In this document: positions 3,201-33,878 of the stretch, piece by piece
Position numbering within the stretch: the first letter of the stretch is position 1
How the letters are laid out: each line of letters opens with the position of its first letter
Origin: Polyangiaceae bacterium
GTDB lineage: Bacteria > Myxococcota_A > Polyangia > Polyangiales > Polyangiaceae
Assembly: GCA_036488725.1 (NCBI GenBank)
Contig: DASXHD010000111.1
Location: 80,760 to 115,099 of the forward strand
DNA: 34,340 bases
Reading direction: 5' to 3'
Notes under the pieces: generated by a model
Told to the model about the DNA's origin: nothing
The model's database searches: none
Seen by the model: only the letters and a program-made list of their open reading frames with translations
Position numbers and translations under genes: made by a program

Positions 3201-6200
3201 CCGTTTGCGGCGCCGCCGCTGCTTCTATGGGCTGCGTCGCCCGCTGTCGCGTGGTGGCTCAGAAAGCCCGAGCCCGAAGAGGCGCCGACTCTCGCGCCGC
3301 TCGAGCGCAAAGAGCTCCGGCTCGTCGCGCGCCGCACCTGGCGCTTCTTCGAGACCTTCGTGACCGAGGCCGATCACTTTTTGCCGCCGGACAATTTCCA
3401 AGAAGACCCGCGCGGCGTGCTCGCGCGACGCACCTCGCCGACCAACATCGGTCTCTATTTGCTCTCGGTCGGAGCCGCGCACGACTTCGGGTTCATTTCG
3501 CTCGGCGAAGCCGTGCGCCGTTGGAACCAGACGCTCGACACGCTCGACAAGCTCACGCGCCACGAGGGACACATCCTCAACTGGTACGACACCGCGACGC
3601 TCGCGCCGCTCGAGCCGCGCTACGTCTCGACGGTCGACAGCGGGAACCTCGCCGCTTACCTCTGGACGGTGCGCGAGACGTGCGAGGATCTCGCGCGTGC
3701 GCCGTGCTCGATCGACGCGCACCTCGAAGCGGCCGACGACGCGCTCGCGCTCGCGGTCTTCGCCGAGCCGCACGACGAGATCGAGTCGCTGCGCGCCGAG
3801 CTCGCGTCGGCTCGCGCCGAGCTCACCGGCGACGCGACGCACGATCGAGAAACGCTCCGGGCTGCAGCGGCTGCGCTCGCGAGCGCGCTCGGGGAGCCGT
3901 GGGCGCAGAATGGGGCGAGCGACGTTCAGGGCGGCGTGCGCCGCGCGGCGCGCCTTCTCGCCGACGTGATCGAAGAGCGAGCTCGCCTCGACGCACCCGA
4001 AGCGCGCGAGGCGATGAACGCTTCGCTCCACGCCGTCGGCGAACGCGCGTGCGCACTCGCGGAAGCGATGTCGTTTCGATTTTTGCTCGACGAAGAGCGA
4101 AAGCTCTTCTCCATCGGCTACAACGTGACGACCGCGCGTCTCGACGCGGGGTTTTACGACTTGCTCGCGTCGGAGGCGCGTCTCGCGAGCCTCGTCGCCA
4201 TCGCCAAAGGCGAAGCGCCGCAGGAGCATTGGTTTCGGCTCGGCCGGCCGCGAGCGCGCGTCTCGCGCCGCGAAGGCCCGGTGCTCCTCTCGTGGAGCGG
4301 CTCGATGTTCGAGTTCTTGATGCCGCTCCTCGTGACCAAGAACTTCGAGGGCACGCTGCTCGATCAGACGTATCACGCCGCCGTGCAGCGCCAGATGGAC
4401 TACGGGGTCGAGCGCGCCGTGCCGTGGGGCGTGTCCGAGTCGGCGTTCAACTTGATGGACCTCGCGATGACGTATCAGTATCGCGCGTTCGGCGTGCCCG
4501 GGCTCGGGCTCAAAGCCGGCCTCGCCGAGGATCTCGTCGTCGCGCCGTACGCGACCGCGCTCGCTGCGCAAGTTCGCCCGCGCGCAGCCGCAGAAAATTT
4601 TCGGACGCTCGCGCGGATGCGCGCGCTCGGCGCGTACGGCTTCTACGACGCCGTCGATTTCACGCCGCGTCACCTGCCGCCGGGTCGCACGAGCGTCCTG
4701 GTCAAAACGTTCATGGCGCATCACCAGGGCATGACGCTCGTCGCGCTCGACAACGCGCTGAACGGCGCGCCGATGCAGCGACGCTTCCACGAGAGCACGC
4801 GGATCAAGTCGTCCGAGCTCTTGCTCCAAGAGCGCGTCCCCGCGCGCGCGCCGCTCGCGCAGATTCACGCCGCGATGCTCCGAACGCCGCAGCTCAACGA
4901 GCCCGAGCTCGACGTCGCCGAGCACGTCGGCCTCGGCGCGCACCCGACCGCGCGCCTCCATTTGCTCGGGCACGGCGAGCTCTCGAGCGCGATCACCGTG
5001 CTCGGCGAAGGTTTCACGACGTGGAAAGGCCTCGACGTGCATCGCTTCCGCGAGGACGCGGCGATCGAAGCAGGCGGGCTCTACGTTTACCTGCGCGATC
5101 GCGAGTCGCACCGCGTTTGGTCGGCCGGCTTCGCGCCGACGCGCGCCGAGCCGGACTATTACGACGTGCAGCTCGCGATCGATCGTGTCGAGATCGTCCG
5201 GCGCGACGGCGACATCGAGACGACGACCGAGATCGTCGTGTCCCCCGAGCGGCCCGCGGAGGTTCGCCGCGTGACCCTCGCGAATCACGGGTCCTCCGCG
5301 CGCGAAATCGAGCTCACGACGTACGCCGAGGTCGTGCTCGCCCCGCGCGCAGCCGACGTCGCGCATCGCGCATTCGTCGGAATGTTCGTCGAGACCGAGG
5401 CGCTCCCCGAGCAGGGCGCGCTCCTCGCGCGACGACGACCGCGCGGCGAAAGCGAAGAAGAAGTGTGGCTCGCTCAGGTCCTCTTCGCCGAGGGCGGCGC
5501 GTGGCAAGAGGGCGTCGAGTGGGAGACCTCACGCGCGAAGTTCGTCGGCCGCGGGCACACGACCGCTGATCCGATCGCGCTCGCCGCGCCGCTCGGCAAG
5601 ACGACCGGCGCCGTGCTCGACCCCGTGCTCGCGATGCGCCGAGTCGTGCGCCTCGAGCCCGGCGGACACGCGCGCATCACGCTGACGAGCGCGCTCGCGA
5701 CCTCGCGCGAGGAAGCGCTCGAGCTCGTCGCGATTTCGGCGACGCCGCACATCCTTCCGCGCGCGTTCGAGCTCGCGTGGGCCGACGCGCGCGTCGAGCT
5801 GCGGCACCTCGGCGTGAGCGCGGCGCAGTCGCATCGCTTCCAGCGGCTCCTCTCGGCGATCGTCTTTCCGCAACCTGCGCTCCGCGCGTCGATCGATCGC
5901 CGCGATTTCGACGGGCACGGCCGCGGCGGCCTCTGGGCGCATGGGATCTCGGGGGACCTGCCGATCGTCGTCGTGCGGATCGACCACCCCGACTTCGCCG
6001 ATCTCTTCGCCGAGCTGCTCCGCGCGCACGAGTTCTTCCGACTCAACGGCGTCGCGATCGATCTCGTCGCGCTGAACGAAGAGCTCCCCGGTTACATGCA
6101 GCCGCAGCAGCAGACTCTCCTCTCCGTCGTGCGCGCGAGCCCGGGCGCGGCGCGGCTCGATCAACGCGGCGGCGTCTTCGTACGGCGCATGCACGAGATG

Positions 6201-8876: not shown

Positions 8877-11721
8877 TGTCCTCGTGATCCCGCTCGACGA
8901 CGCCGTCGACGAGAAACGGTCCTGGGCTCGTGACCGGATCGCCGAGTGACGCGAAGGCGTCCGGCAAAATCACGACCTCGACGAGATCCGTTTCGTCCTC
9001 GAGCGTCACGAATTGCATTTTTCGGCGACCGCGCGTCTCGATGCGACGTGACGCGGCGACGATGCCCGCGATGCGCGCGCCTTCGCCGACGCGCTCGGCT
9101 AGCGATGCGATCGGAATCGCGCCGGCCGCGGCGGCCTCGGTGCGGAGCAATCGCATCGGATGATCCGAGACGTGCATGCCGAGAATGGCGACCTCGTTTT
9201 GGACGCGCACGAGGCCGCGATACAGATCGCCGCGCGGACCGCCCGCTGCGCGCGCGACGAAGCTCGCGAGCGACGGATCGCGTTTGCGCATCGCGAGGAG
9301 ATCCTCGTGCGCGATCGGATAACCGCGCGCGGAGAGCGGCGCGAGATCGTCGCACGCTCCCGAGAGGACGAGGGAACGGAGCTCACGGTCCGAGAGCGAC
9401 GTTCGCGCGAGCAAATCGCGCATGTCGGCGAACGGGCGCACCGCGAGGACCGCGGCGGCGTTTTTTTGGGTGAGGTGCGCGATGGCGCCCAGCCCGACGC
9501 GCACGGCGCCGTCCTCGACGACGTGGTCGATCGCCGAGCGCGCGACGTCGGGCCGCAAGATGGTGACGCCGGACCGCGCGAAGTCGGCCGCGATCGTCCG
9601 TAGCGGATACGCGCCGCCGTAATGATTGAGCACCGCGCACGCGAACGCCGCAGGCCGATGGACTTTCGCCCAGACCGATCGCCACGCGAGCTCGGCGTAG
9701 CTCGTCGCGTGCGCGCGACTGAACGAATAGGCCGCAAAACGCGCCAAATCCGGCCACGCGGCTTCGGCGCCCTCGATGACACGCCCGCGAAAATCGCGTT
9801 CGATCTCGGCGAGCGCCGCGGGATCTTCGTCAGCGCGAACGATCGCGGCGCGCATCGCGTCGGCCTCTTCGAGCGAGCCGCGCGTGAGCGTCGCGATGGC
9901 GCTGAGAATGTCCTCCTCGAAGAGGAGCATGCCGTGCGTGCGCGCGAGAAGCGGTCCGAGCGCCGGGTGCGGTGGCGACGCGGGCTCCTCGCCGTGCGCG
10001 CGCCGAACGAACGCGGCCTTCGCGTCACCCGAGCTCGGCCCCGGCCGCACGAGCGCGAGCGCGGTCGTCACGTCGTCTGCATCGCGAATCGGAAGCTTGC
10101 GCAAGACGGAGCGCGTCGCCGCGGTCTCGACCTGGAAGCAGCCGATGGTTTGCCCTCGCTCGAGCGCGGCGCGCGTCGCCGCGTCGTCGCCGGGCGCGGA
10201 GGAGACGCCGCACGCTTCGAGCGCGGCGAGCGCACGGTTGCCGAGCAAGTCGATCTTCAAGAGCCCGAGCTTTCCGATCGAGCGAAGATCGTACTGCGTG
10301 ACGAGGACGCCTTTCGGCGCGCGCTCGAGCGGCGTGTACGCGGTCAGCGGTCCGTCGCCGATCACGACGCCGCCCGGATGCACGGAGACGTGCTGGAGCT
10401 TGCCGACCGTGCGCTCGATGAGACCGACGTGCGGTTGCACGGCGTACGGCAGCGACGCGGTCGGAGGCGGCGCCTCCTCGTCCGTCATGCGCGCGCAAAA
10501 TCGGTCGACGTCCTCGCGGCGCATGCCGAGCGCCTTGAGGCCTTCGCGATATGCGGCGCGGCGGCGGAAAGTCTGATGCGTCGACAGCATCGCGACGCGA
10601 TCGCGGCCGAAGCGACGAAAGACCCAATCGACGAGTTCGTCGCGACGGTTCGAGGGCAAGTCGAGGTCGATGTCCGGCGGCTCCAGCCGCCCGGCGTGAA
10701 CGAATCGTTCGAAATGGAGACCGTGCACGATCGGGTCGATCGACGTGATGCCGAGCGCGAAGCAGACGAGCGAGCTCGCCGCCGAGCCTCGGCCTGCGAT
10801 CGCGATGCCCGCGGCGCGCGCGTGATCGGTGATCTCACGAACGACCCAAAAATACGGGGCGAGATGGAGGATGCGGATTGTCTCGAGCTCGCGCGCGAGG
10901 CGCGTTTCGTAGGCGACGCCGCGGCCGCAGATCGCCTCGCGACACGCGGCAGCGAGCTTTTCGTCGGCGTCGGGTACGTCCGGGACGACGCGTGTCGTCT
11001 CGCACAAGTCGAGCGTGCATGCTTCGGCGACCGCGCGTGACTCGGCGAGCGCATCGGGGGCGTCGCGAAAAAGATCGGCCCACGGCGCGAGGAGGGCGCG
11101 CTCGTGCGATTCGGCGCCCGTCGCGTCGCGAACGCGCATCCGGCGGCGAATCGCAAAGAGAAGTCGATGAAGATCGGCGTCGTCGGGCGAGAGCATGACC
11201 GCGTCGACGTCGGCGACCGCGCGCACACGCGACGGCGGTTCTGCGCCGGCTCGCGCGAGCAAAAATCGAACGTCGTCCGGCGCGACGCCGCGCGCGAGGA
11301 GCGACTCGAGCGTCTCGACGTCGTCGCTCAGATAAAAAATACCGCGCGGCTCGTCCTCGAGACACTCGAGCGGATCGCCCGTCTCGCCCGCCACCGTTCG
11401 ACGCCGCGTGACGATGCGGCAGAGGCTCTCGTAACCGGCGCGATCGCGCGCGAGCAACACGAGCCGCCCGCGTTTTTCGCCGACGGCGTGCGGCCCGAAC
11501 CCGCGACGAAGCTCCACGCCGGTGATCGCGCGAATCCCCGCGTCTCGCGCGGCGTGATGAAGCTCGACCTGCGCGTACAAATTTTCGAGGTCGGTCAGCG
11601 CGACCGCACCGCAGCCGAGCCGAGCCGCCGCACGCACGAGCTCGCGCGGCGACGCGGTCCCGTACCCTGCGGAGCGATCGCTCTTCGTGTGCAGGGGTAC
11701 GAACGTTGCGTCCTTCGTCAC
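8806..11721 (-). CDS. dnaE2: Error-prone DNA polymerase III alpha-like (DnaE2/ImuC-type C-family polymerase), 971 aa
   Basis: N-terminal degenerate PHP domain (FVPLHTKSDRSAGYG...ALTDLENLY). DnaE palm/finger motifs GLLKIDLLGNRALAAL and IGCFQVETAATRSVL. GTG start at 11719-11721. Size is below replicative DnaE and fits DnaE2. Confidence 0.8.
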   Translation of the reverse strand: MTKDATFVPLHTKSDRSAGYGTASPRELVRAAARLGCGAVALTDLENLYAQVELHHAARDAGIRAITGVELRRGFGPHAVGEKRGRLVLLARDRAGYESLCRIVTRRRTVAGETGDPLECLEDEPRGIFYLSDDVETLESLLARGVAPDDVRFLLARAGAEPPSRVRAVADVDAVMLSPDDADLHRLLFAIRRRMRVRDATGAESHERALLAPWADLFRDAPDALAESRAVAEACTLDLCETTRVVPDVPDADEKLAAACREAICGRGVAYETRLARELETIRILHLAPYFWVVREITDHARAAGIAIAGRGSAASSLVCFALGITSIDPIVHGLHFERFVHAGRLEPPDIDLDLPSNRRDELVDWVFRRFGRDRVAMLSTHQTFRRRAAYREGLKALGMRREDVDRFCARMTDEEAPPPTASLPYAVQPHVGLIERTVGKLQHVSVHPGGVVIGDGPLTAYTPLERAPKGVLVTQYDLRSIGKLGLLKIDLLGNRALAALEACGVSSAPGDDAATRAALERGQTIGCFQVETAATRSVLRKLPIRDADDVTTALALVRPGPSSGDAKAAFVRRAHGEEPASPPHPALGPLLARTHGMLLFEEDILSAIATLTRGSLEEADAMRAAIVRADEDPAALAEIERDFRGRVIEGAEAAWPDLARFAAYSFSRAHATSYAELAWRSVWAKVHRPAAFACAVLNHYGGAYPLRTIAADFARSGVTILRPDVARSAIDHVVEDGAVRVGLGAIAHLTQKNAAAVLAVRPFADMRDLLARTSLSDRELRSLVLSGACDDLAPLSARGYPIAHEDLLAMRKRDPSLASFVARAAGGPRGDLYRGLVRVQNEVAILGMHVSDHPMRLLRTEAAAAGAIPIASLAERVGEGARIAGIVAASRRIETRGRRKMQFVTLEDETDLVEVVILPDAFASLGDPVTSPGPFLVDGVVERDHEDTTLIVRHVVPFHRRAHPYRQPSP

Positions 11722-12380
11722 CGATGGCTCGGCAACCTAAGACCGAAATGAGCGCGCTGCCATTTCTGCCGAAAAAACGAGTGACGCTCGCGACGCTCGC
11801 CGACGCAGCGCGAGCGTGCCGCGGATGCCCGCTCTACGCGCGCGCGACGCAGACCGTGTTCGGCGCGGGCCCGGCGAGCGCGCGCGTGATCCTCGTCGGC
11901 GAGCAGCCGGGCAACGACGAAGATTTGAGAGGCGCGCCGTTCGTCGGCCCGGCCGGACGCGTGCTCGACAAGGCGCTCGCCGCGGCGCACATCGATCGAC
12001 GCGAGACCTACGTCACCAACGTCGTGAAGCACTTCAACTGGGTCGCGACGACCGGCAGCCGGCGCCTGCACAAGAAACCGTCGTCGCGCGAAGTCTCGGC
12101 GTGCTTGCCGTGGCTCGAAGAAGAAATCGTTCTGATCAAACCAGACGTCGTCGTTCTTCTCGGCGCGACCGCGGCGCAAGCCATCCTCGGGCGAGATTTC
12201 CGCGTCACGAAAGACCGCGGCAAGCTCCTCGCGACGCGCTTTGGAGCACGTGCGCTCGCGACGGTGCACCCCTCGTCGATCCTTCGGCAGCGAACGCACG
12301 AAGACCGCGCGCGCGAGACGGAGCGCTTCGTCGCGGACCTCGCCGTCGTCGCCAAGCTCATTCACCGCAGAGCGGCGTGA
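11706..12380 (+). CDS. udgX: UdgX-like family-4 uracil-DNA glycosylase (covalent uracil-DNA binding type)
   Basis: GEQPGNDEDLRGAPFVGPAGRVLDKAL (family-4 motif A). VHPSSILRQ (motif B). An R-loop insertion VVKHFNWVATTGSRRLHKKPSSREVSACLPW closely parallels the UdgX KRRIH loop, with the His retained. TTG at 11706; in-frame ATGs at 11724 and 11748 are more likely starts. Confidence 0.8.
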   Translation: MRPSSPMARQPKTEMSALPFLPKKRVTLATLADAARACRGCPLYARATQTVFGAGPASARVILVGEQPGNDEDLRGAPFVGPAGRVLDKALAAAHIDRRETYVTNVVKHFNWVATTGSRRLHKKPSSREVSACLPWLEEEIVLIKPDVVVLLGATAAQAILGRDFRVTKDRGKLLATRFGARALATVHPSSILRQRTHEDRARETERFVADLAVVAKLIHRRAA

Positions 12381-12381
12381 A

Positions 12382-13392
12382 TCAAATCTCGGCGCTGTGC
12401 AGCCACTTCGGGTGACTCGCGGTGCTGTCGTATTTGTCGGCGGTCTTGAAGAGCTCGTACTTTCCGCTGAGCGCCGCGTCGCGCGTGCGCCGCAGGAGAT
12501 CGGCGATCTGATCCTCGTCGAGCGGCTTGAAGTTTTGCGCGACGTGGATCGCCTGGTTCAAGATTGGCATCGAGTCGCACCCGGTGATGACGACGTTGGT
12601 CGGCAAACTGAGTGCATACTGCAAACATTCGACGGCGGTCACGGTCTTGCTCTTCAGGAGATCGCCCGAGCCGATCGGCTTCATGCTGCAGATCCCGAGG
12701 CCCTTGCGGCGCGCGACCGGCAGCACGTTGTGCTGAAAGCTCCGGAAGTGCGCGTCCATCACGTTGAGCGGCATCATGATCGTGTCGAACGTGAAGCCGT
12801 GTTGTTCGGCGACGGCGAGCATCTCGAGGTGGATGCTCGGATCTTTGTGGCCGGTGAAGCCGATGAACCGGAGCTTGCCGGCTTTGCGCGCTTCGAGGAG
12901 ACCTTCGATCGCGCCGCCGGGCGCGAAGACCGCGGTCGGATCGCTCGAGCGAATGACCTCGTGGATCTGCACGAGATCGATGTGATCGGTGCGAAGGCGC
13001 TGGAGCGATTGCTCGAGCTGCTTTTGCGCGGAGTCTTTGTCGCGACCGTCGACCTTGGTCATCAGGAACGCGCGCTGGCGCCAGCCGCCCTCGAGCGCCT
13101 TGCCCATGCGTCGCTCGCTGTCGCCGCCGTGGTAGTCCCAGCTGTTGTCCATGAACGTCACACCGTGATCGATTGCGCTGCGCACGATGCGGATGGCCTC
13201 GTCCTCGGTGTGCGTCTCGCCGAGGTGCGAGCCGCCGATGCCGATGCGCGAGATGGTCTCGCCGGTGCGGCCGAGCACGTTGGTCGGAATGCCGCCCTTC
13301 ACGGGCGCGGACGTGAGGCTCGGCGGCGGATCGTTCTTCGCGCAAGCCGCGAGCACGACCGTTCCTGCGATGAAGCTTCGACGCGAAATCAT
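12382..13392 (-). CDS. Aldo/keto reductase family oxidoreductase, Tat-signal lipoprotein
   Basis: AKR fold signature (GIGGSHLGE..., IRIVRSAIDHGVTFMDNSWDYHGG, HIDLVQIHE). N-terminus MISRRSFIAGTVVLAACA has a twin-arginine motif plus an LAAC lipobox. The track ORF extends to 13539, but an ATG at 13392 gives a proper signal peptide. Confidence 0.75.
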   Translation of the reverse strand: MISRRSFIAGTVVLAACAKNDPPPSLTSAPVKGGIPTNVLGRTGETISRIGIGGSHLGETHTEDEAIRIVRSAIDHGVTFMDNSWDYHGGDSERRMGKALEGGWRQRAFLMTKVDGRDKDSAQKQLEQSLQRLRTDHIDLVQIHEVIRSSDPTAVFAPGGAIEGLLEARKAGKLRFIGFTGHKDPSIHLEMLAVAEQHGFTFDTIMMPLNVMDAHFRSFQHNVLPVARRKGLGICSMKPIGSGDLLKSKTVTAVECLQYALSLPTNVVITGCDSMPILNQAIHVAQNFKPLDEDQIADLLRRTRDAALSGKYELFKTADKYDSTASHPKWLHSAEI

Positions 13393-26398: not shown

Positions 26399-26701
26399 TC
26401 AGTCGGCTTGCCACGCGATGAAGGGCGGCAGCTTCTCTTCGCGCTCGAAAAAGTCGAGCGCCTGCCGGACCACGTCGACCGGATACGCCCACGACGCGGG
26501 ACGAACGTCGCGCTGACCGTTGCTCAAACAATATTCGATCGTCGCGTCGGCCGGCCCGGCGTAATCCGGATTGCGCGAGCTCTGAGCGGCCGCGCCCGGC
26601 GCGGACAAATACATGAGCCATCCGCGCTCGCCGTGGATGAGCGCGCGAAGTCGCTTCTCGCCCGCCTCGACCCAGATCTCTTCGAACCGATCGCCCGCCA
26701 C
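26399..26701 (-). CDS. Small hypothetical protein (100 aa)
   Basis: Clean ORF with non-Arg-rich composition (MAGDRFEEIWVEAGEKRLRALIHGERGWLMYLS...). No assignable family. It sits between rbfA and the tRNA. Confidence 0.35.
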   Translation of the reverse strand: MAGDRFEEIWVEAGEKRLRALIHGERGWLMYLSAPGAAAQSSRNPDYAGPADATIEYCLSNGQRDVRPASWAYPVDVVRQALDFFEREEKLPPFIAWQAD

Positions 26702-26778: not shown

Positions 26779-26855
26779 GCGCCACTAGCTCAGCTGGATA
26801 GAGCGACGGCCTCCGGAGCCGTAGGTCAGAGGTTCGAATCCTCTGTGGCGCGCCA
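26779..26855 (+). tRNA. tRNA-Arg (anticodon CCG)
   Basis: Manual cloverleaf fold. Acceptor gcgccac/gtggcgc. D arm gctc-agctggata-gagc. Anticodon stem acggc/gccgt with loop ctCCGga. T arm agagg-ttcgaat-cctct. Discriminator g plus encoded CCA. 77 nt. Confidence 0.9.
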
Positions 26856-28185
26856 CCCTGGACGACGGGATTTCCGCGGTGTCCTCCACCGCGCCGGCGC
26901 GCACTGAGTCGGCAACTTCGGACGTCTGCACCACTATTGCACCACCCCGATGGTCGGCGACCGCCAGCGCGGTGACCGCTGGCTCCGCGATGCGCTCCTC
27001 CGGCTCGGGCGGGTTGAAGCGGAGCCTATTTACTTCGCTGCGTAAGTAGTCGGGCGCGAGGTGCCCGTACACGTCGACGGTAATGCGCGGGTCGCGATGG
27101 CGGAGGATGCGTTGGACGGCGGCGGCGTTCGCGCCCGCTTGCATCAAGAGCGACGCGGTCGTGTGCCGGAGGTCGTGGAACCGAATCGGTCGCACCTTCG
27201 CGATGGGCCAGAGCTTCGGGTTCTTCTTGCCGTGCTGCGTCGGGCAGCGGCGGACGCCGCCGTCGGCCGCCATCTCGGAGTAGCCGCACTTGCGGCACCG
27301 ATGCTCGTAGCCCGTGACGATGCCGGCATGCTTCATCGCGCGCCGCAAGACCTCCTCGAGCGGCGTGTGCGAGCTGCGCATGCTGCCGTCGTCGTCCGGG
27401 AACACGTAGTCGCTCGAGACCGGCGAGGCCGCGAGCGCCGCCTCGAGGTACGGCACGAGCTCGTCGGCGATCGGCACCACGGCCGCATGTCCGCTCTTCG
27501 TCGTGTCGCGGTCGTACGACCGTGAGACCATGATGAGGCGCGCGTCGAGGTCGACGTCGAGCTTCTTCAGCCCGATGATCTCGCCGCGGCGCATCCCGCT
27601 GTAGATGGCGGTCGCCAGCATCCCGCGCCACTTCGGCGGCGTGTGCGTCAGCACCGGCAGCACCTCGTGCGCCCGAAGGTACTGAGGCGTCCGCTGCGGC
27701 ACCTTGCGGCGCTCCACGTCTTGGACGGGGTTCGGGCCGCCGAAGCGGCCCGCCTTGCGCGCTTTCGAGAAGGCGCTGAAGAGGAAGCGGCGGAGGTGAT
27801 TCAAGGACTGCGGCCCGAGCTTGCCCGCCTTCGCTTGCAAGAACTCCTCGATCGTGCCGGGCGTGATCTCCGCGAGTCGGAGCTTCGCGAGGCCCGAGTC
27901 GACGATGTGGAGATTGACCGTCGCTTTGTTGCGCTCGTGTGAGGTGCTCTTGCTCGAGTACGTCTCGAGCCACCAGTCCATGAGCGCGTGCAGCGTGCCG
28001 CCGCCGTCCTCGTCAGGCATCGCCTCGAGGCCGAGCCGCTGACGTTCGGCGCGCCGCTCGAGATCGTCAGCGAGACGGCGCGCTTCTGTTTTCGTGCGCG
28101 CCGTCGTCGGGCGCATCACGCGCTTGCCGCGGTGGTCCTTGTACTTGACGTACCAGCGCGGCCCACGTTGGAAGACTGATGCCAT
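26785..28185 (-). CDS. int: Tyrosine-type site-specific integrase (phage/ICE integrase)
   Basis: ATG at 28183-28185 preceded by a GGAGAA Shine-Dalgarno. N-terminal SAM-like/arm-binding region. Catalytic region HDLRHTTASLL...RILRHRDPRITVDVYGHL (R..H-R-H..Y). The ORF has no stop until 26785, so it reads antisense through the whole tRNA-Arg gene. Confidence 0.85.
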   Translation of the reverse strand: MASVFQRGPRWYVKYKDHRGKRVMRPTTARTKTEARRLADDLERRAERQRLGLEAMPDEDGGGTLHALMDWWLETYSSKSTSHERNKATVNLHIVDSGLAKLRLAEITPGTIEEFLQAKAGKLGPQSLNHLRRFLFSAFSKARKAGRFGGPNPVQDVERRKVPQRTPQYLRAHEVLPVLTHTPPKWRGMLATAIYSGMRRGEIIGLKKLDVDLDARLIMVSRSYDRDTTKSGHAAVVPIADELVPYLEAALAASPVSSDYVFPDDDGSMRSSHTPLEEVLRRAMKHAGIVTGYEHRCRKCGYSEMAADGGVRRCPTQHGKKNPKLWPIAKVRPIRFHDLRHTTASLLMQAGANAAAVQRILRHRDPRITVDVYGHLAPDYLRSEVNRLRFNPPEPEERIAEPAVTALAVADHRGGAIVVQTSEVADSVRAGAVEDTAEIPSSRVARHRGFEPLTYGSGGRRSIQLS

Positions 28186-28207
28186 TGGTTCTCCTCGAAA
28201 TGGAGCA

Positions 28208-28414
28208 CTACTTGCGCTTGAGCGCCACGACCGTCGCGCGCGGCGAGGACTTCTCGCCGCGCGCGAACGCCTCGATGGCCCCACGCTCGAAGCGCAGCAA
28301 GCCGCCCACGCGAAGCGCAGGCAAGTCGCCGACTTCGGCCCGGTGGTACACCCAAGACCGCGAGACCCTGAGAAATGTGGCGACGTCCGCTGCTGTCCAG
28401 AGCGATTCGCTCAC
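28208..28414 (-). CDS. xis: Excisionase / AlpA-like HTH DNA-binding protein
   Basis: 68-aa ORF MSESLWTAADVATFLRVSRSWVYHRAEVGDLPALRVGG. This is the classic excisionase/MerR-like winged helix. It lies immediately upstream of int on the same strand. Confidence 0.7.
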   Translation of the reverse strand: MSESLWTAADVATFLRVSRSWVYHRAEVGDLPALRVGGLLRFERGAIEAFARGEKSSPRATVVALKRK

Positions 28415-29046
28415 GGCTTCACCAGCGAGCGGCGTATCGACGGGAACGGGAAGACTAGGTCGCCGATTGCGCTGAACGCTTTGGTGAAGCGCTCGTGTTC
28501 TTCGAGGTCACCGGTCGCGGGCATGAAGATGATCACGTTGGCGTGCGTCGGCGACGACATCGGCACGAGCGTCCCGTGTTGGTCAACGAAGAACTTGGTG
28601 CGTTCCGCCGGCACGCACATCGGGAAGTTGAGGGCTGAAGGCAGGCTTCCGTCGCCTTGTGACAGGCGCAGGATCTCCAAGGTAAATCCAACGAAGACGA
28701 CGGACGCCGCCCTGAACGCCAGCCACTCGCGAACCGCCTTCCAATAGAACATCTGCGCAAGGCTCCGGTTGCCCACTTTGCCTCCCGGCGGATTCACGAA
28801 GACGCGACCCAACCACGGACGCGTCAGCCCATCGTCCTCGGCGGTGAGGAAGGTCTTCGCGCCAACGACCGTGTTGGCACGGGCGGAACTCGCCGGATCA
28901 AAATCAATGTCGCCCATCACCGCCTTCGTGGCGCCGATGATCAGCGGGGGCGTGATATACTCGGAGCTCTTGCTGCTGTGCTGAGGAATTCGCACTGCGC
29001 GATCAGCGGCCGCCGCGTCCTTCGCGTGCATGCGACGAGCCATCAC
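28411..29046 (-). CDS. Phage Dam-family (PF05869-like) N6-adenine methyltransferase homolog with NPPG in place of the NPPY catalytic motif
   Basis: EYITPPLIIGATKAVMGDIDFDPAS...TAEDDGLTRPWLGRVFVNPPGG matches the characteristic W/Y-TP...G-IDLDP...DGL..W.G.vFvNPPY pattern of phage Dam proteins. The DNA confirms aat ccg ccg gga (N-P-P-G). GTG/ATG start at 29046/29043 overlaps the upstream stop. Confidence 0.55.
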   Translation of the reverse strand: MMARRMHAKDAAAADRAVRIPQHSSKSSEYITPPLIIGATKAVMGDIDFDPASSARANTVVGAKTFLTAEDDGLTRPWLGRVFVNPPGGKVGNRSLAQMFYWKAVREWLAFRAASVVFVGFTLEILRLSQGDGSLPSALNFPMCVPAERTKFFVDQHGTLVPMSSPTHANVIIFMPATGDLEEHERFTKAFSAIGDLVFPFPSIRRSLVKP

Positions 29047-29252
29047 GATGCTCCCCCGCTCTGGAACAGTCCTTTCAACGGGACTCCGACATCGGCGAGA
29101 TCGCGCTCGATGCGACTGCGCTCGTCCGGCGTGATCGCGACGCGCTCGGCGATGATTCTGCTCAAGCGCGTTTCCGAAATAGCGAGCGTGCGAGCGGCGA
29201 GATAGATAGTGCGGTGCTTCTTTTGAAGCGCCATCTTGAGATTGAAAAGCAT
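29043..29252 (-). CDS. Small helix-turn-helix (Cro/XRE-like) regulator
   Basis: ATG at 29250-29252 preceded by a strong SD (GGAGGTcacATG). MLFNLKMALQKKHRTIYLAARTLAISETRLSRIIAER has an HTH signature. The track ORF extends to a TTG at 29270. Confidence 0.5.
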   Translation of the reverse strand: MLFNLKMALQKKHRTIYLAARTLAISETRLSRIIAERVAITPDERSRIERDLADVGVPLKGLFQSGGAS

Positions 29253-29323
29253 GTGACCTCCGGGCCGCAATTGGTTACGGCGGCCTCCTAGGTCACAGTC
29301 GCGCAGCTCCGCACAAGCGCGCT

Positions 29324-30619
29324 CTACGTGATCATTTCAAGTTTCTTTTGCCCGTGGTCGAGCATAGCGATTTCGAGGATCGTCCTCGCGTGGCTCTCAC
29401 TGATGCGTACCGGTCCACCAGCTCGGCGTTTGGCCCGAACACCAAGGCGCAACTCAGCTTCCTTCAACAGCGCGGGCACATCGTCGTCGCGCCGCAGTAA
29501 CCCATCAGCCACTGCTTCTTCGACAAAGTCGGCGAGACATGTCCACGCCTCCCGCGTCGACGTGCCCTTGAGCTGCTCTCGGACCCGCACCCTCCAGTCG
29601 GCGTCCAGCAAGTAGCCGCTCCCGTCACGTTCGGGCGCGCAACCGGCGAGCTCGATGGCATCGTTCAGCGCGTTGCGCACCGTCGTTTCCGCGAAGTCGA
29701 GTTGTCGCGCGACCTCGGCGATCCTCCAGCCTTCGCGCACCGGCCGTTGGCGCGCCACCAAACCGTTGCACGGTTCTGACTGACCTTCTTCATTGTAGTC
29801 GGGCTCGATGCCATGGTCTTCGGACACCCGCACCGTCACCGATGTGAGGCCCCGCTTACGGAGTTTCGTCTTGCGATCGTTGGCGAAGACCTTCGCGACG
29901 TATTGGGCGGGAATGCCGGTCTCGCTTGGAACGTACGCGCGCAGAATGTCTTGTTTCCGATCCAGTGTTGTCGCGACAAGGTTTTGTTGCTCGTCCTCGA
30001 TGCTTTCGCGCGTCTTCTTTGCAACCGCTCGGAGCGCACATTCGAACGTCTTCCACTCGCGCGCGTGCTCGGCGGTGTCGTTCGCGCTCGCCAGCAATAC
30101 GTCGGGGCGAAGCGCACGGAACATTGCCCATGCTTTGTTCCGAAACATGAAGGAGCGTTCACACAAGCCCTCCACGTGCTCGACCACCCTAACGGCATCA
30201 ATGAAACGGACCGCGGGCCACATTGCGGCCACGAGCTCGGCCTCGCAGTCAAAGACCTGCCGAAGCTCGTCTTCAGCCGGAGCGGGGTCAATAACGCCGC
30301 AGCGACTCGTGCGAAAGAAGTCCACCATTCTATCGATGAGGCGCTTGCCTTTGTGGAATGCCGTCATTCCGGTCGTCACGTCGGGAGTAAAGCCTGGCAT
30401 GTCCAGCTGCAGAAACACGATGTACGGTTCGGCGTAGGTTCCCTTCGCGAAGTCCAGAATCTCGGACCTGATCTCATCATCGAGCGGACCGAAAACCGCG
30501 TGCTCGTCCTCGGCCTGCTGGCACGCGATGTATTCCGCCAACGCGTCCGGAGTAGCGGTCCTCTGTAGATTTACGCCGGCTTGACGCGTCCGCTCTTCTA
30601 GGTCTTTCGAACTAATCAC
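29324..30619 (-). CDS. Hypothetical island protein (~430 aa) with C-terminal sigma-70 region-4-like HTH
   Basis: Long non-Arg-rich ORF. HTH near the C-terminus (GWRIAEVARQLDFAETTVRNALNDAIEL). No catalytic motif recognised. The 5' end is uncertain. The GTG at 30617-30619 is the first in-frame start that does not overlap the divergent ParB-like gene. Track ORF runs to 31168. Confidence 0.45.
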   Translation of the reverse strand: MISSKDLEERTRQAGVNLQRTATPDALAEYIACQQAEDEHAVFGPLDDEIRSEILDFAKGTYAEPYIVFLQLDMPGFTPDVTTGMTAFHKGKRLIDRMVDFFRTSRCGVIDPAPAEDELRQVFDCEAELVAAMWPAVRFIDAVRVVEHVEGLCERSFMFRNKAWAMFRALRPDVLLASANDTAEHAREWKTFECALRAVAKKTRESIEDEQQNLVATTLDRKQDILRAYVPSETGIPAQYVAKVFANDRKTKLRKRGLTSVTVRVSEDHGIEPDYNEEGQSEPCNGLVARQRPVREGWRIAEVARQLDFAETTVRNALNDAIELAGCAPERDGSGYLLDADWRVRVREQLKGTSTREAWTCLADFVEEAVADGLLRRDDDVPALLKEAELRLGVRAKRRAGGPVRISESHARTILEIAMLDHGQKKLEMIT

Positions 30620-30751
30620 CGGCAACAGGTTTCGGCCGGGGCCCGTGGGTGTCAAGGCGAACTTTTTTTCCCGGCGCGTCGCTTGTGCGGACCGGCGTGA
30701 CTGTTGTCCATGCGCCGACGCCTTTAAGTTTCGGCGGCGCACGGAGACCCA
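30620..30751. promoter_or_regulatory. Divergent intergenic region on the island, presumed bidirectional promoter/operator
   Basis: ~130-bp non-coding gap between the head-to-head unknown gene (minus) and ParB-like gene (plus). Contains a TTGACA hexamer and a T7 run (gaactttttttcc). No -10 element could be assigned confidently. Confidence 0.3.
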
Positions 30752-32770
30752 ATGCCCACCCCGAAAGACGAGACGAACGCGAAGATGACGAGCACGGTGC
30801 CCGCATTCGACGGAAGCGCCACAGCGAACGATCAGCCCACCGCCCCACCGTCGCAACTCGGCAGTCGCCTGCGACGCGGGAAGCGAAGCGCGACGCTGTT
30901 GGCTCCGCTCGACTCGGCCGCAGAAGACAGCGGCGCCGAGAAGAACCTGGAAGTCGCCATCGGAGCGCCCGCGAGTCCCGTGTTCGGCGCCGCGCTCGCG
31001 CTGCGCGGGACGAAGACGCAGACGCTCGAGACGAAGAAGACGACAACGCCCGAGGTCACCACTGCACCCGATGACATCCCGGTCGGGCGCATCGACGAAG
31101 CCGAGGAGCTCGTCGTCACGCCGCCGCTGCAGCCGGCGGTGCTCACCGAACCCACGACGTGCCCGCACCCGCTACTGCAGCGTCTCGGCGACCACAGGTG
31201 CGCCCTCTGCGGCTGCATCGTGACGGCGCCGCCCACGTCGTCGGTCGCTCCGGCACCGAACGGCATCATTCCGGAAAGCGAGTGGAGCGACGAGCAGCGC
31301 GCTCAGGACAAGAAGATCGCCGAGATGAAGGCGCGCATCGAGCACGAGATGGGCCTTGAGCCGACTCCGCCCTTGCCACACCTCCCGGCCGTCGCCGTAA
31401 CCGAAGTCAGCTTGGGCGCACCGGCAACGCGTGGGGACCCCCCCGCGGCGATCGCCGAGCCGCCGCCCGCGAAGGCCGATGACCGGTCGCTCGCCGACAT
31501 CATCTTCTCCTGCGAACATCCGGACCATCTTCGCAGTGCGACGGGATGCGCGGCGTGCGGCGCGGGCCTGAGACTCATCGAGTCCATCGACGCCGGCAAG
31601 AAGCTCAACGCGCAGCTGGCCGCGCAGGCCGCCGCAACCGCGCAGCAGGCGCCGGACAAAACACTGCCCGACGTGAGCGCAGAAGCGGGTACAGCTTCCC
31701 CGGACGTCGGCGGGTCGGTGCCGGGGACGGCGGAGAGCTCGCCGTCGGTCGAGCGCGGCGGCGACAACGACGTCGCCGGCGATCACCCAGGGCAGCTCGC
31801 GCCCGATCGCGGCGAGAACGGCGAGCCGCTGTACCACGCCGCGTGCCTCGCGTTCCCCGAGCCGACCGAGCCCGAGATGGCCGAGCTCATCGAGAGCGTG
31901 CGCGTCCACGGGGTCCAGCACGAGGGCGTGCTCTTCAAGGGCAAGGTGCTCGACGGTCGCAGCCGCGAGATTGCGTCGCGTCGAGCAGGCGTGCGGATGC
32001 GCTGGCGCGAACTGCCCGCGGGGATCGACCCCATCGACTACGTCACGGCTGCGAACGTGACCCGTCGAAATCTCACGCCTGGTCAGCTCGCGATGGCGGC
32101 AGCAGCGCTCGTGCCTCTCATCACGGAAGCGGCGCGCGAGCGTCAGCGCGCCGGTCTCGGCTCGGATGGCAGCGGAGGCCGCGGGAAGAAAACCCTGGCG
32201 CCAGATGGCGCCAAGGTTCGTGCGCCGAAGGCCGCGGGCATCGCCGCGGCGAAAATCGGCGCCAAGGCGCGCAACGTCGAGCGCGCCTTGGTCGTCGAGG
32301 AGCGCGGAGCGCCGGAGACCGTGGCTGCCGCGCGGGCGGGCACGCTGCCGCTAGCAACCGCCGAGATGCTCGCGCAGCTCCCGGCGCAGGAGCAGACCGA
32401 GGCAATCGCCGCGGGGCCCGACGCCGTTCGCGCAGCGGCGGCGAAGTTCCGCGGGAATCTGAAAAACCGCACCAATCGCAAGACGAAAGCGGACCGCTCC
32501 CCAGTTACCTACGAAGACGCGGCGGCGAAGAACGCCAAGACCGCGGAGACTCGTGCGAACGACTCGAACGATTCAGTCGTCGCGTTTACCCCGGGGGACA
32601 AACTCGCCGGAATGCAGGACGTGCTGTGGGCCCTGCACGCGATCGAGGCCTTCTTGCGTGCCTCGGGCGCATTCGAGCCATCGTCGCAGCTCGAGCGCGT
32701 GCGCAGCGACCTGCACGACCTCGACGAACTGCTCGCGAAGCTGATCACTCCGGCGGCGGTGACACGATGA
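30752..32770 (+). CDS. ParB/Srx-like nuclease-domain + HTH protein with ~380-aa low-complexity N-terminal extension carrying two Cys/His knuckles
   Basis: ATG with an SD (GGAGacccaATG). ParB N-domain MAELIESVRVHGVQHEGVLFKGKVLDGRSREIASRRAGV (GxRR-like arginine motif). ParB-type HTH IAAAKIGAKARNVERALVVEE...LPLATAEMLAQL. N-terminus is acidic and Ala/Pro-rich, with repeats TCPHPLLQRLGDHRCALCGC and SCEHPDHLRSATGCAACGAG. Confidence 0.7.
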   Translation: MPTPKDETNAKMTSTVPAFDGSATANDQPTAPPSQLGSRLRRGKRSATLLAPLDSAAEDSGAEKNLEVAIGAPASPVFGAALALRGTKTQTLETKKTTTPEVTTAPDDIPVGRIDEAEELVVTPPLQPAVLTEPTTCPHPLLQRLGDHRCALCGCIVTAPPTSSVAPAPNGIIPESEWSDEQRAQDKKIAEMKARIEHEMGLEPTPPLPHLPAVAVTEVSLGAPATRGDPPAAIAEPPPAKADDRSLADIIFSCEHPDHLRSATGCAACGAGLRLIESIDAGKKLNAQLAAQAAATAQQAPDKTLPDVSAEAGTASPDVGGSVPGTAESSPSVERGGDNDVAGDHPGQLAPDRGENGEPLYHAACLAFPEPTEPEMAELIESVRVHGVQHEGVLFKGKVLDGRSREIASRRAGVRMRWRELPAGIDPIDYVTAANVTRRNLTPGQLAMAAAALVPLITEAARERQRAGLGSDGSGGRGKKTLAPDGAKVRAPKAAGIAAAKIGAKARNVERALVVEERGAPETVAAARAGTLPLATAEMLAQLPAQEQTEAIAAGPDAVRAAAAKFRGNLKNRTNRKTKADRSPVTYEDAAAKNAKTAETRANDSNDSVVAFTPGDKLAGMQDVLWALHAIEAFLRASGAFEPSSQLERVRSDLHDLDELLAKLITPAAVTR

Positions 32771-33753
32771 GCGCCTCGGTTCTTGGCGTCGGGCGTCCGA
32801 ATCCCATGGAGCGCGTCGGGCCCTGGATCAAACACTTTCCAGGCGGCAAAGGGCACAACAACTGCCCGCGCTTCTACTACGTGCGCGATGGATTCGGATG
32901 CACATACAACTGCCATTATTGCTATTTGCGTCGCTTCGAGAATCTTCATCCGGATGGCGCGGAGTTCGATCCGAAGTTTGAGCGGCTCTACTCCGAGGTA
33001 AAGGCGTGGATGAAGCGGCCGGGCCGCAACGCATTGCTCCTCGGTGAAGTTACCGACGGGTGGGGCTGGACGCATATCGAAAAAATTCTCGAACGCAACC
33101 TGCAGCTCATCGTGATGTTTCGCGCGCAGCAGTCGCACACGCTAATCACGTTGACGAAGGACAGCCACGTGATGCAGCGTCTCGCCGGTATCACGCCGAC
33201 GGACCGCGTGGTCCTTTCGTGGAGTTTGAACCCGCCGGCGATCGCGGACTTGTACGAGATGGGCGCGAAGCAAGCAGAGGCGCGCATCGCAGACGCGGCA
33301 CGCGCCCGCGAGGCAGGCTGGCGCGTTCGCGTTCGGATCGATCCGATGATTCCGATTGCCGAGTGGCAACGACATTACGCGGAACTCGCCAATGTCGTGC
33401 GCGACCGAGTTCGACCCGAGCTCGTGACGTGTGGGTCGTGGCGTCCGCGCCCCCAGGACCCAATGATGAAGTCCGCGCCGCCGGAGATGACGGCGCATTT
33501 GGAGAAGGGGCCTGACGGACGCCTGCGCCTGAAGAACCGGATCGAGATGTACGAGACGGTCTGGGCGATTCTTGGCTCCGACATCACGCGCAGCCTCTGC
33601 AAGGAGGAACTCGACGTCGAAGCTTGGCTCTACACCGAGCACGGTGAGGTGATGCAGGCGTGCAACTGCCTCGGCGAGCCCGTCGTCCCAGTCAGCCGCC
33701 TGCACGTCAGTGCGGCGCTCCAGGCGCGCGCGCGTGTGGAGGTGCGCCGATGA
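32767..33753 (+). CDS. Radical SAM enzyme of the SplB / DNA-repair-photolyase-like (COG1533) type
   Basis: CX3CX2C cluster in the context GFGCTYNCHYCYL, typical of the spore-photoproduct-lyase family (C..C.YCY). Start ATG overlaps the ParB-like stop (ATGA). It is in frame with an upstream Arg-rich artefact (track ORF 31546-33753). Confidence 0.7.
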   Translation: MSASVLGVGRPNPMERVGPWIKHFPGGKGHNNCPRFYYVRDGFGCTYNCHYCYLRRFENLHPDGAEFDPKFERLYSEVKAWMKRPGRNALLLGEVTDGWGWTHIEKILERNLQLIVMFRAQQSHTLITLTKDSHVMQRLAGITPTDRVVLSWSLNPPAIADLYEMGAKQAEARIADAARAREAGWRVRVRIDPMIPIAEWQRHYAELANVVRDRVRPELVTCGSWRPRPQDPMMKSAPPEMTAHLEKGPDGRLRLKNRIEMYETVWAILGSDITRSLCKEELDVEAWLYTEHGEVMQACNCLGEPVVPVSRLHVSAALQARARVEVRR

Positions 33754-33878
33754 AGAGCATCACCGAGATCATTTTCGGAGCCTTCCCCGGCCGTCGCCTC
33801 GAAGCCGCCGTGCACGAAGTTGGGCACTTTGCTCTCGCCGTCGCCGGCGGCGGCCTTCCAAGGCCCGCTTGGCCATGA
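33750..33878 (+). CDS. Small ORF with HExxH zinc-peptidase-like motif (42 aa), possibly the 5' part of a frameshifted or split gene
   Basis: MKSITEIIFGAFPGRRLEAAVHEVGHFALAV contains HEVGH. ATG overlaps the rSAM stop (ATGA). It ends with a TGA that itself overlaps the ATG of the next ORF in the -1 frame. Confidence 0.3.
   Translation: MKSITEIIFGAFPGRRLEAAVHEVGHFALAVAGGGLPRPAWP

Follow-up and report, generated by a model that had tools for sequence, protein, structure and literature searches.

A ParB-coupled radical SAM enzyme of the spore photoproduct lyase superfamily on a Polyangiaceae integrative element, and a family that may modify DNA

What might a radical S-adenosylmethionine (SAM) enzyme of the spore photoproduct lyase (SPL) superfamily do on a mobile element in a bacterium that makes no endospores? 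The question is raised by one gene in a stretch of 34,340 nucleotides (nt) from a Polyangiaceae bacterium (GenBank assembly GCA_036488725.1, contig DASXHD010000111.1, positions 80,760 to 115,099), referred to throughout as the window. A first-pass annotation had read this gene as SPL-like cargo of an island, linked to ParB, in a host showing no sporulation genes there, and had suggested that it may repair or install a covalent DNA lesion or modification, possibly for counter-defence. The host was read correctly: an identical protein is annotated in a metagenome-assembled genome (MAG) of the Polyangiaceae (Myxococcota); this bacterium is no endospore former, and the gene is part of an integrated element and not of a sporulation regulon. 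SPL-like genes outside spore formers are common and well known as COG1533, so their occurrence in such a host is unsurprising by itself. The gene and the one before it, each an open reading frame (ORF) measured in amino acids (aa), are as follows.

32767..33753, plus strand: radical SAM enzyme of the SPL superfamily, 328 aa
30752..32770, plus strand: ParB-like partner, 672 aa (BLASTP, profile search, hhalign)

The comparisons described here suggest that the ParB-coupled enzyme chemically alters DNA and does not serve the repair of spore damage.

GC content by codon position (third ~0.8, second ~0.45-0.5) marks the frame of the enzyme as a real gene in a genome of 68% GC. Two independent metagenome annotations call the same start, an ATG that shares bases with the stop codon of the 672-aa ORF before it (cgATGAgc). 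The C-x3-C-x2-C cluster that had been noticed within GCTYNCHYCYL was found again in the translated protein, at residues 44-54 (nt 32896-32928). Its cysteines C45-x3-C49-x2-C52 (CX3CX2C) form the site for the SAM-cleaving [4Fe-4S] cluster of a radical SAM enzyme and enclose or adjoin two tyrosines, Y51 and Y53; further cysteines are C33, C278, C299 and C301, the last two in a C-x-C arrangement. A (beta/alpha) TIM-barrel core, partial or full, is also present. The general radical SAM model of Pfam, PF04055, stayed below its cutoff (21.6 bits vs a gathering threshold of 29.5), whereas PF20903 was above it (38.1 bits vs 27, E 1.1e-9, residues 43-217) and was found in all homologues; because this related model passes, the PF04055 miss is attributed to divergence and not to absence of the fold. 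PADLOC gave no match for the enzyme or for its neighbours in the window, and the sole match in a PHROGs scan was a family of unknown function. In a scan for promoters and terminators, nothing promoter-like was seen, and terminator-like sites were fewer than in shuffled sequences.

SPL is by far the closest solved structure and the only sequence match in PDB, at just 15-17% identity to the window enzyme (SplB of Geobacillus thermodenitrificans, 4FHC; TIGR04070). In SPL, the hydrogen-atom donor that closes the repair cycle is Cys140 in G. thermodenitrificans, or C141 in B. subtilis, and the radical-relay tyrosines of the C-H-Y-C-Y stretch are Y96 and Y98. The equivalents of these tyrosines are Y51 and Y53, while two independent alignments place E94 at the position of Cys140, the same position that is mutated in PDB entries 4fhe and 4fhg. 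In the absence of the Cys140 relay, the SPL repair cycle is unlikely. The SPL equivalog model TIGR04070 gave 39 bits vs a cutoff of 400, and this score together with the Glu rules out a true SPL orthologue. The assignment to the SPL/COG1533 clade thus holds as membership of the branch and fails as orthology. It had been said that loss of the SPL-specific Cys and Tyr residues, combined with clustering among radical SAM families that do not act on DNA, would overturn the assignment; the Cys is indeed absent, whereas the tyrosines are kept and no clustering with a non-DNA family was seen. The window enzyme is also shorter than SPL at the N-terminus and, unlike SPL, is encoded on an integrative element, beside a coupled ParB-like gene, in a host without endospores.

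Other families of the superfamily fit no better. The SPL-family model TIGR03886 gave 34 bits vs a cutoff of 438, radical SAM mobile pair protein B (TIGR04470) 34.5 vs 410, the PA0069 family (NF033668) 17 vs 360 and the Rv2578c family (NF038135) 12 vs 430. The last three belong, like the window enzyme, to the COG1533/PF20903 superfamily and show weak similarity by hidden Markov model (HMM); membership in each of them is ruled out by the sub-cutoff scores, and a second, adjacent radical SAM gene, protein A of the mobile pair, is lacking at the window locus. Since all NCBIfam scores lie far, about ten-fold, under their cutoffs, a separate family within the SPL superfamily is indicated, and the window protein is almost certainly an SPL-fold radical SAM enzyme of such a distinct family.

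How large is this family, and what does it conserve? A word-indexed search returned just 20 relatives in 5.8 billion sequences, and a profile search of 1.84 billion cluster representatives returned 4348 matches with an E-value of at most 1e-3, of which 840 reached 1e-30 or lower; the family thus has at least ~840 clusters at 50% identity with E below 1e-30. Conservation was counted over 168 family representatives. The three cluster cysteines are invariant wherever aligned, position 51 is Y, W or F, position 53 is Y or F, and G93-E94-x-x-D97 is conserved, with Glu at the position of SPL Cys140 in 147 of the 168. C33, C278, C299 and C301 are all present in 128 of the representatives, and most exceptions are fragments. 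To our knowledge these four extra cysteines have no counterpart in SPL, and they are predicted to form a second metal site, either a structural zinc or an auxiliary Fe-S cluster. A rough neighbour-joining tree, calculated without support values, places the window clade (P0001-P0011, P0022 and P0024 with the accompanying loci) in one group and the N-terminal fusion forms in another. Close relatives of the window enzyme were not found in IMG/VR, and tblastn against cultured phages and plasmids returned essentially no homologues, with a ParB-radical SAM fusion matching through its ParB part only.

Variants of the cluster motif were also observed. One subgroup (L087, L088, L089, L091, L093, L094 and L096) carries CX8CX2C, in the form C-P-A-W-A-A-G-x-P-C-S-Y-C, with a Cys-rich insert. 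In six of the seven loci a DNA methylase is encoded no more than four genes away, three times immediately downstream; L096, for which the neighbour cluster holds no methylase, is the exception. L080 and L084 combine the canonical motif with a CxxC...CxxC insert and show the same methylase adjacency.

The partner provides the first indication of what the enzyme may act upon. It has a ParB_N-like domain and a helix-turn-helix (HTH) at residues ~360-567, with the motifs VLDGRSR and TRRNLTPGQ, followed by a C-terminal helical tail. BLASTP aligns residues ~360-567 at 30% identity (E 1e-15) with the module at the N-terminus of P0172, a protein whose C-terminal part is an MT-A70 adenine methyltransferase. 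The partner escaped an initial ParB HMM made from fused proteins, and hhalign with the single sequence reached just 40%; the ParB match became convincing only once a four-sequence profile was used. A homologue search with residues 347-672 yielded three useful matches, and the four-sequence profile of the module (A4) found Spo0J (1vz0) at E 7.6e-7 as well as Noc and several ParB structures. When A4 was aligned by hhalign to the Pfam-verified ParB_N domains of radical SAM fusions, the probability was 98% (E 1.5e-13), with DGRSR matched to the arginine motif GERR and TRRNLTPGQ to the helix ENLxRxxLt. By profile, the partner therefore shows the ParB/Srx order of a GxxR-type motif domain followed by an HTH. 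The N-terminal half (30752-31790) is of low complexity, rich in Ala, Pro and Thr, and holds two C...CxxC motifs (CPHP...CALCGC and CEHP...CAACG). In locus L003 an unrelated 502-aa protein encoded upstream of the enzyme also begins with CxxC pairs, and the motifs of both proteins may be zinc-ribbon modules.

The A4 profile also identified a ParB-like gene directly upstream of the radical SAM gene, and overlapping it, in L004 (E 9e-11), L103 (6e-9) and L102 (8e-8), the closest relatives of the window locus; in L003 a ParB-like gene is the divergent neighbour. BLASTP of the window partner found no match in the L003 502-aa protein or the N-terminus of P0022, and hhalign of the latter with the ParB profile was negative, so the ParB linkage is not universal in the clade. 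By these profile comparisons, linkage of ParB and radical SAM genes in the window clade is frequent. The ParB link proposed at first reading was thereby borne out, through the ATGA overlap, the profile-supported domain and the operon kept in L004, L102 and L103. A survey of ParB-fold fusions described ParB_N joined to N6_N4_Mtase or MT-A70 in phages and plasmids (PMC12704722). The logic is the same as in the window, where a mobile element pairs a ParB/Srx-type module, homologous to the N-terminal module of ParB-like/MT-A70 fusions, with a candidate DNA-modifying enzyme; in the window the catalytic part is a radical SAM enzyme, in the surveyed fusions a methyltransferase. A ParB_N-N6_N4_Mtase protein was in fact found near the radical SAM gene of L028.

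The main argument for a DNA substrate comes from fused members of the family. Extensions of more than 150 aa were seen in 24 of the 168 representatives, and all 24 were scanned with Pfam. ParB_N and/or HTH_ParB occurs in 13 of them, N- or C-terminal to the enzyme; GMT-wHTH, carrying a winged HTH (wHTH), occurs in two, the target-recognition domains of type I HsdS in one (P0069), and LAGLIDADG_3, a sigma-70 region 3/4 HTH and DUF488 in one each. The seven cysteines and E94 are kept in all fused forms. Such independent fusions to DNA-binding and specificity modules point to DNA as the substrate and, for some members, to particular sequences.

Gene neighbourhoods are consistent with this. An N6_N4 DNA methyltransferase is the commonest neighbour cluster, present in 13 of 81 non-redundant loci; it lies immediately downstream on the same strand in eight, and five members were Pfam-verified. 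Other neighbours in the 81 loci are a metallo-beta-lactamase (MBL)-fold protein directly upstream (7), ParB-like proteins (6) and integrases (5). On viral contigs of IMG/VR, the gene of the family adjoins a DNA methylase plus HTH_17, DnaB or DUF3560. The P0069 operon encodes an HSDR_N_2/N6_Mtase/Eco57I methylase, a 312-aa protein of unknown function, the HsdS-radical SAM fusion and a 365-aa PDC-M30A protein, and lies inside a defence island with AbiEii, RadC, HEPN/NTase and Fic. P0063 is a PDC-M30A/wHTH-radical SAM fusion in which PDC-M30A makes up the first 320-360 residues (E 1e-38); its gene is flanked by one for an N6_N4 methylase and one for a ResIII helicase that weakly matches type III restriction proteins. 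The 298-aa and 312-aa genes that precede the radical SAM gene in these two restriction-modification (R-M)-like operons have no detectable relationship. PDC-M30A, a PADLOC defence candidate, is located at 12422-13519 in L031 and at residues 8-359 of P0063 (L036, 10001-12142); its link to the radical SAM enzyme is recurrent and is not represented in PADLOC. The ParB-radical SAM protein P0047 has a GHKL ATPase next to it and a DndB-like gene nearby.

On what kind of element, then, does the window gene reside? The island that had been proposed was confirmed as an integrated element, marked by a tRNA-Arg(CCG) gene with an adjoining tyrosine integrase, and its remaining features are listed here.

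26779..26855, plus strand: tRNA-Arg(CCG) (ARAGORN), probable integration site on the attL side
26785..28284, minus strand: tyrosine integrase, 499-aa ORF (Phage_integrase 80.4 bits, E 1.7e-22)
28411..29046, minus strand: small, phage-type Dam-like DNA methyltransferase homologue (tblastn; Pfam Dam sub-threshold, E 3e-4)
29043..29270, minus strand: small ORF of ~69-75 aa, called in L001 and L002, no family match
29324..30742, minus strand: protein of 405-472 aa with a weak C-terminal HTH (Sigma70_r4_2 and HTH_29, both sub-threshold)
33750..33878, plus strand: 42-aa ORF overlapping the stop of the radical SAM gene, called in L001 and L002
33875..34228, plus strand: 117-aa ORF from gene calls, with the contig end 112 nt later

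The radical SAM gene is ~6 kb inside the element, in the integrase-proximal operon. The 672-aa gene, the radical SAM gene and the two small ORFs after it run divergently from the gene at 29324..30742, whose product is a putative regulator of the element. The 117-aa ORF gave no match in Pfam, NCBIfam or PADLOC, nor did a 172-aa ORF overlapping it in PHROGs. GC falls to 0.62-0.65 over much of the region after the integrase. The tRNA-plus-integrase layout is repeated at tRNA-Gly(CCC) in L003 (Polyangiales; 11721-13036) and at tRNA-Pro(TGG) in L004 (2248-3774), and L035 likewise has an integrase, then three genes on the minus strand and, divergent from them, genes on the plus strand. In the window element, L003 and L004, the integrase ORF runs at its 3' end into the target tRNA gene, which is on the opposite strand. 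The window integrase is 26-30% identical to those of L003 and L004, whereas the radical SAM enzyme, by far the best conserved gene of the element, is 57-59% identical, a contrast that points to selection on the enzyme; the genes besides these two are not recognisably similar.

Three independent assemblies (NCBI MAG, JGI and Logan contigs) end 587-595 nt past the stop of the radical SAM gene, and this common break points to a repeat within the element or to a junction there that varies between strains. In L101, whose radical SAM enzyme is 58% identical, the gene is followed by a small ORF and then by a 1042-aa D5_N/DUF5906/Pox_D5 primase-helicase; because it stands there in L101, a primase-helicase is suggested past the break of the window as well, which would make these small integrative elements of the integrase-plus-primase type. 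The Dam-like homologue at 28411-29046 matched 285 phage records at 29-39% identity over >80% of its length (tblastn), annotated as DNA N-6-adenine or modification methylases. Its motif IV reads NPPG vs NPPY in a Vibrio phage homologue and NPPC in another phage; lacking the usual aromatic residue of this motif, it may be inactive or of altered chemistry.

Taken together, the comparative evidence appears to favour a DNA substrate and leans to modification over repair. That DNA is the substrate is probable on this evidence. In support of modification are the N6_N4 methylase neighbours, the HsdS/PDC-M30A operons and the Dam-like gene in the window element; the complete proposal, that a DNA-directed radical SAM enzyme with a ParB-type partner installs a DNA modification for the element, is evenly balanced in our estimation. 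In the proposed mechanism, the ParB-like partner would bind DNA, possibly as a clamp gated by nucleoside triphosphate as in other ParB-fold proteins (PMC12704722), and would bring the enzyme to it. The reduced cluster would cleave SAM to the 5'-deoxyadenosyl radical, and this radical would abstract a hydrogen atom from a nucleotide bound in an active site like that of SPL. The product would be a covalent DNA modification for the element, either a self mark or a protection against restriction, in a role analogous to that of the phage ParB-methyltransferase fusions and of phage M6 gp53 (PMC8989533).

The precedent of gp53 deserves closer comparison. This SPL-like radical SAM isomerase of thymidine hypermodification installs a DNA modification (Lee et al. 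2021, PMC8989533), in a 5-hydroxymethyldeoxyuridine (5-hmdU) pathway with a kinase, aGPT-Pplase and a pyridoxal phosphate (PLP) decarboxylase; as of 2021, just two radical SAM enzymes had been tied to DNA, SPL in repair and M6 gp53 in hypermodification (PMC8989533). Like the window enzyme, gp53 is SPL-like and encoded by a mobile element; it acts on DNA in a protective modification. By its description it is set apart through the cluster motif CTVGCAFC and through having no reported ParB link. No 5-HMUDK kinase, aGPT-Pplase or PLP decarboxylase was detected beside the window gene, an absence that is not full proof with the element cut at the contig end.

Several observations weigh against the proposal that the enzyme modifies DNA with a ParB-type partner. 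Substrate and chemistry would both have to be read from fusions and gene neighbourhoods only, and cognate genes could be missing past the contig end. The ParB domain of the window partner is divergent, with DGRSR instead of GERR and no Pfam or NCBIfam match from the single sequence. The partner also varies within the clade: the upstream gene of L104 looks like a RecD-type helicase, with Walker-type motifs read from sequence, L035 has an unrecognised 594-aa region fused to the enzyme, and the upstream partner in L003 is an unrecognised protein. Furthermore, neither a ParB nor a methylase gene adjoins the distant chromosomal homologues (~30% identity) of Planctomycetota, Desulfobaccales, Acidobacteriota and others, whose neighbours are of a housekeeping kind. 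Among these neighbours are an MBL-fold protein, pyruvate:ferredoxin oxidoreductase or a formyltransferase (L013), MnmA (L019, 1004-3460), a class-V aminotransferase or cysteine desulfurase (L021, 340-2691), a pair of HgdB and BcrAD-type activase (L018, 4319-7634; L054, 494-5558) and a TusA/DsrE sulfurtransferase (L054), with the homologue located between the activase pair and the sulfurtransferase. The sulfur-related ones hint that part of the family may perform sulfur chemistry, and with such housekeeping-type neighbours the family may not share one substrate.

Three other explanations were weighed. A substrate other than DNA, whether tRNA or rRNA, protein or a small molecule, for instance through sulfur insertion with an auxiliary cluster, with the ParB link being regulatory or due to chance, would agree with the sulfur-related and metabolic neighbours of L013, L018, L019, L021 and L054. 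Sulfur-inserting radical SAM enzymes carry auxiliary clusters, and the four extra conserved cysteines would suit one. This explanation is nevertheless very unlikely, given the operon of ParB-like and radical SAM genes kept in the window clade and the fact that at least five kinds of DNA-binding or specificity domain have become fused to family members independently; methylase adjacency and the SPL-type fold point to DNA as well. If DNA is the substrate, the enzyme might still be a repair lyase that reverses the spore photoproduct or another radical-repairable lesion or crosslink while the ParB-like protein scans the DNA. The closeness to SPL in structure and the SPL match in PDB, together with the retained CHYCYL tyrosines, speak for it, and COG1533 genes are reported, going by paper titles alone, in LexA regulons of some phyla. 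Repair is made quite improbable, however, by the Glu in place of the hydrogen-atom donor and by the gap to the 400-bit equivalog cutoff, and the fusions to HsdS target-recognition domains, LAGLIDADG and wHTH, along with the methylase and R-M-like operons, fit sequence targeting and not random lesions. The spore photoproduct, moreover, arises in dehydrated spore DNA bound by small acid-soluble proteins (SASP), which this host does not make, and this too counts against repair.

The third explanation is a role in defence or exclusion. Here the enzyme would be an effector or sensor that damages or tags unmodified incoming DNA by radical chemistry while methylases protect self, which would make it defence cargo and not counter-defence. 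The operon of methylase, unknown protein, HsdS-radical SAM fusion and PDC-M30A beside AbiEii, HEPN-NTase and Fic would suit such a role, as would the operon of N6_N4 methylase, unknown protein, PDC-M30A-wHTH-radical SAM fusion and ResIII helicase with its type III restriction-like matches, and P0047 beside the GHKL ATPase and the DndB-like gene. In the window clade, by contrast, no nuclease or helicase effector accompanies the enzyme, the gene occupies the integrase-proximal operon, and in a close relative a D5-type primase-helicase follows it. No PADLOC model matches the radical SAM domain, and on viral contigs L026, L027 and L030, where restriction genes were not searched for, the adjacent genes identified are DNA methylases. 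We therefore regard defence as unlikely, and modification of DNA for the element remains the preferred reading.

The gene is not categorically new, because COG1533 outside spore formers is well known and an SPL-like, DNA-modifying precedent exists. In the literature covered, which was incomplete, no SPL-like radical SAM enzyme was found to be described in linkage or fusion with ParB, HsdS or PDC-M30A, and the 2025 survey of ParB-fold fusions uses neither 'radical' nor 'photoproduct' in its main text (PMC12704722). The window gene by itself is the less interesting since its function is a prediction; the interest lies in the family-wide pattern of ParB, HsdS and wHTH modules, methylase and R-M-like contexts and a four-Cys site. 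Such a pattern would indicate that mobile elements and their hosts fight each other with an unrecognised type of enzymatic DNA modification or with targeted DNA damage, and the repertoire of ParB-domain fusions would be extended from methyltransferases to radical enzymes. A tentative further step, less likely than not, would be a widespread, undescribed family of DNA-targeted radical SAM enzymes, steered by ParB clamps, HsdS or other modules, that leaves a new radical-derived covalent mark, possibly with a second Fe-S cluster at the four extra cysteines and possibly with sulfur, the latter because of the TusA/DsrE, MnmA and desulfurase neighbours. If true, this would represent a radical-chemistry branch of restriction-modification and anti-restriction in integrative elements, viruses and defence islands. 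The two-gene module would offer a testable entry point, and the sequence-specific versions would be suited to motif mapping. Should the enzyme be a repair enzyme instead, mobile elements would be found to carry dedicated radical DNA repair.

The first 26.7 kb of the window are chromosomal in appearance. An NdvB/Cgs-type cyclic beta-1,2-glucan synthase of 2891 aa is encoded at 201-8876 on the plus strand (1938 bits to 8rf0), convergent with the gene for a 971-aa DnaE-like polymerase at 8806-11721 on the minus strand; being shorter than the replicative Pol III alpha subunit, this polymerase is possibly of the DnaE2/ImuC type. Other genes of the chromosomal part encode an acyl-CoA dehydrogenase, MarR and RbfA. 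Just outside the tRNA boundary of the element, at 26399-26701 on the minus strand, lies an Imm1 polymorphic-toxin immunity gene (Pfam, 29 bits).

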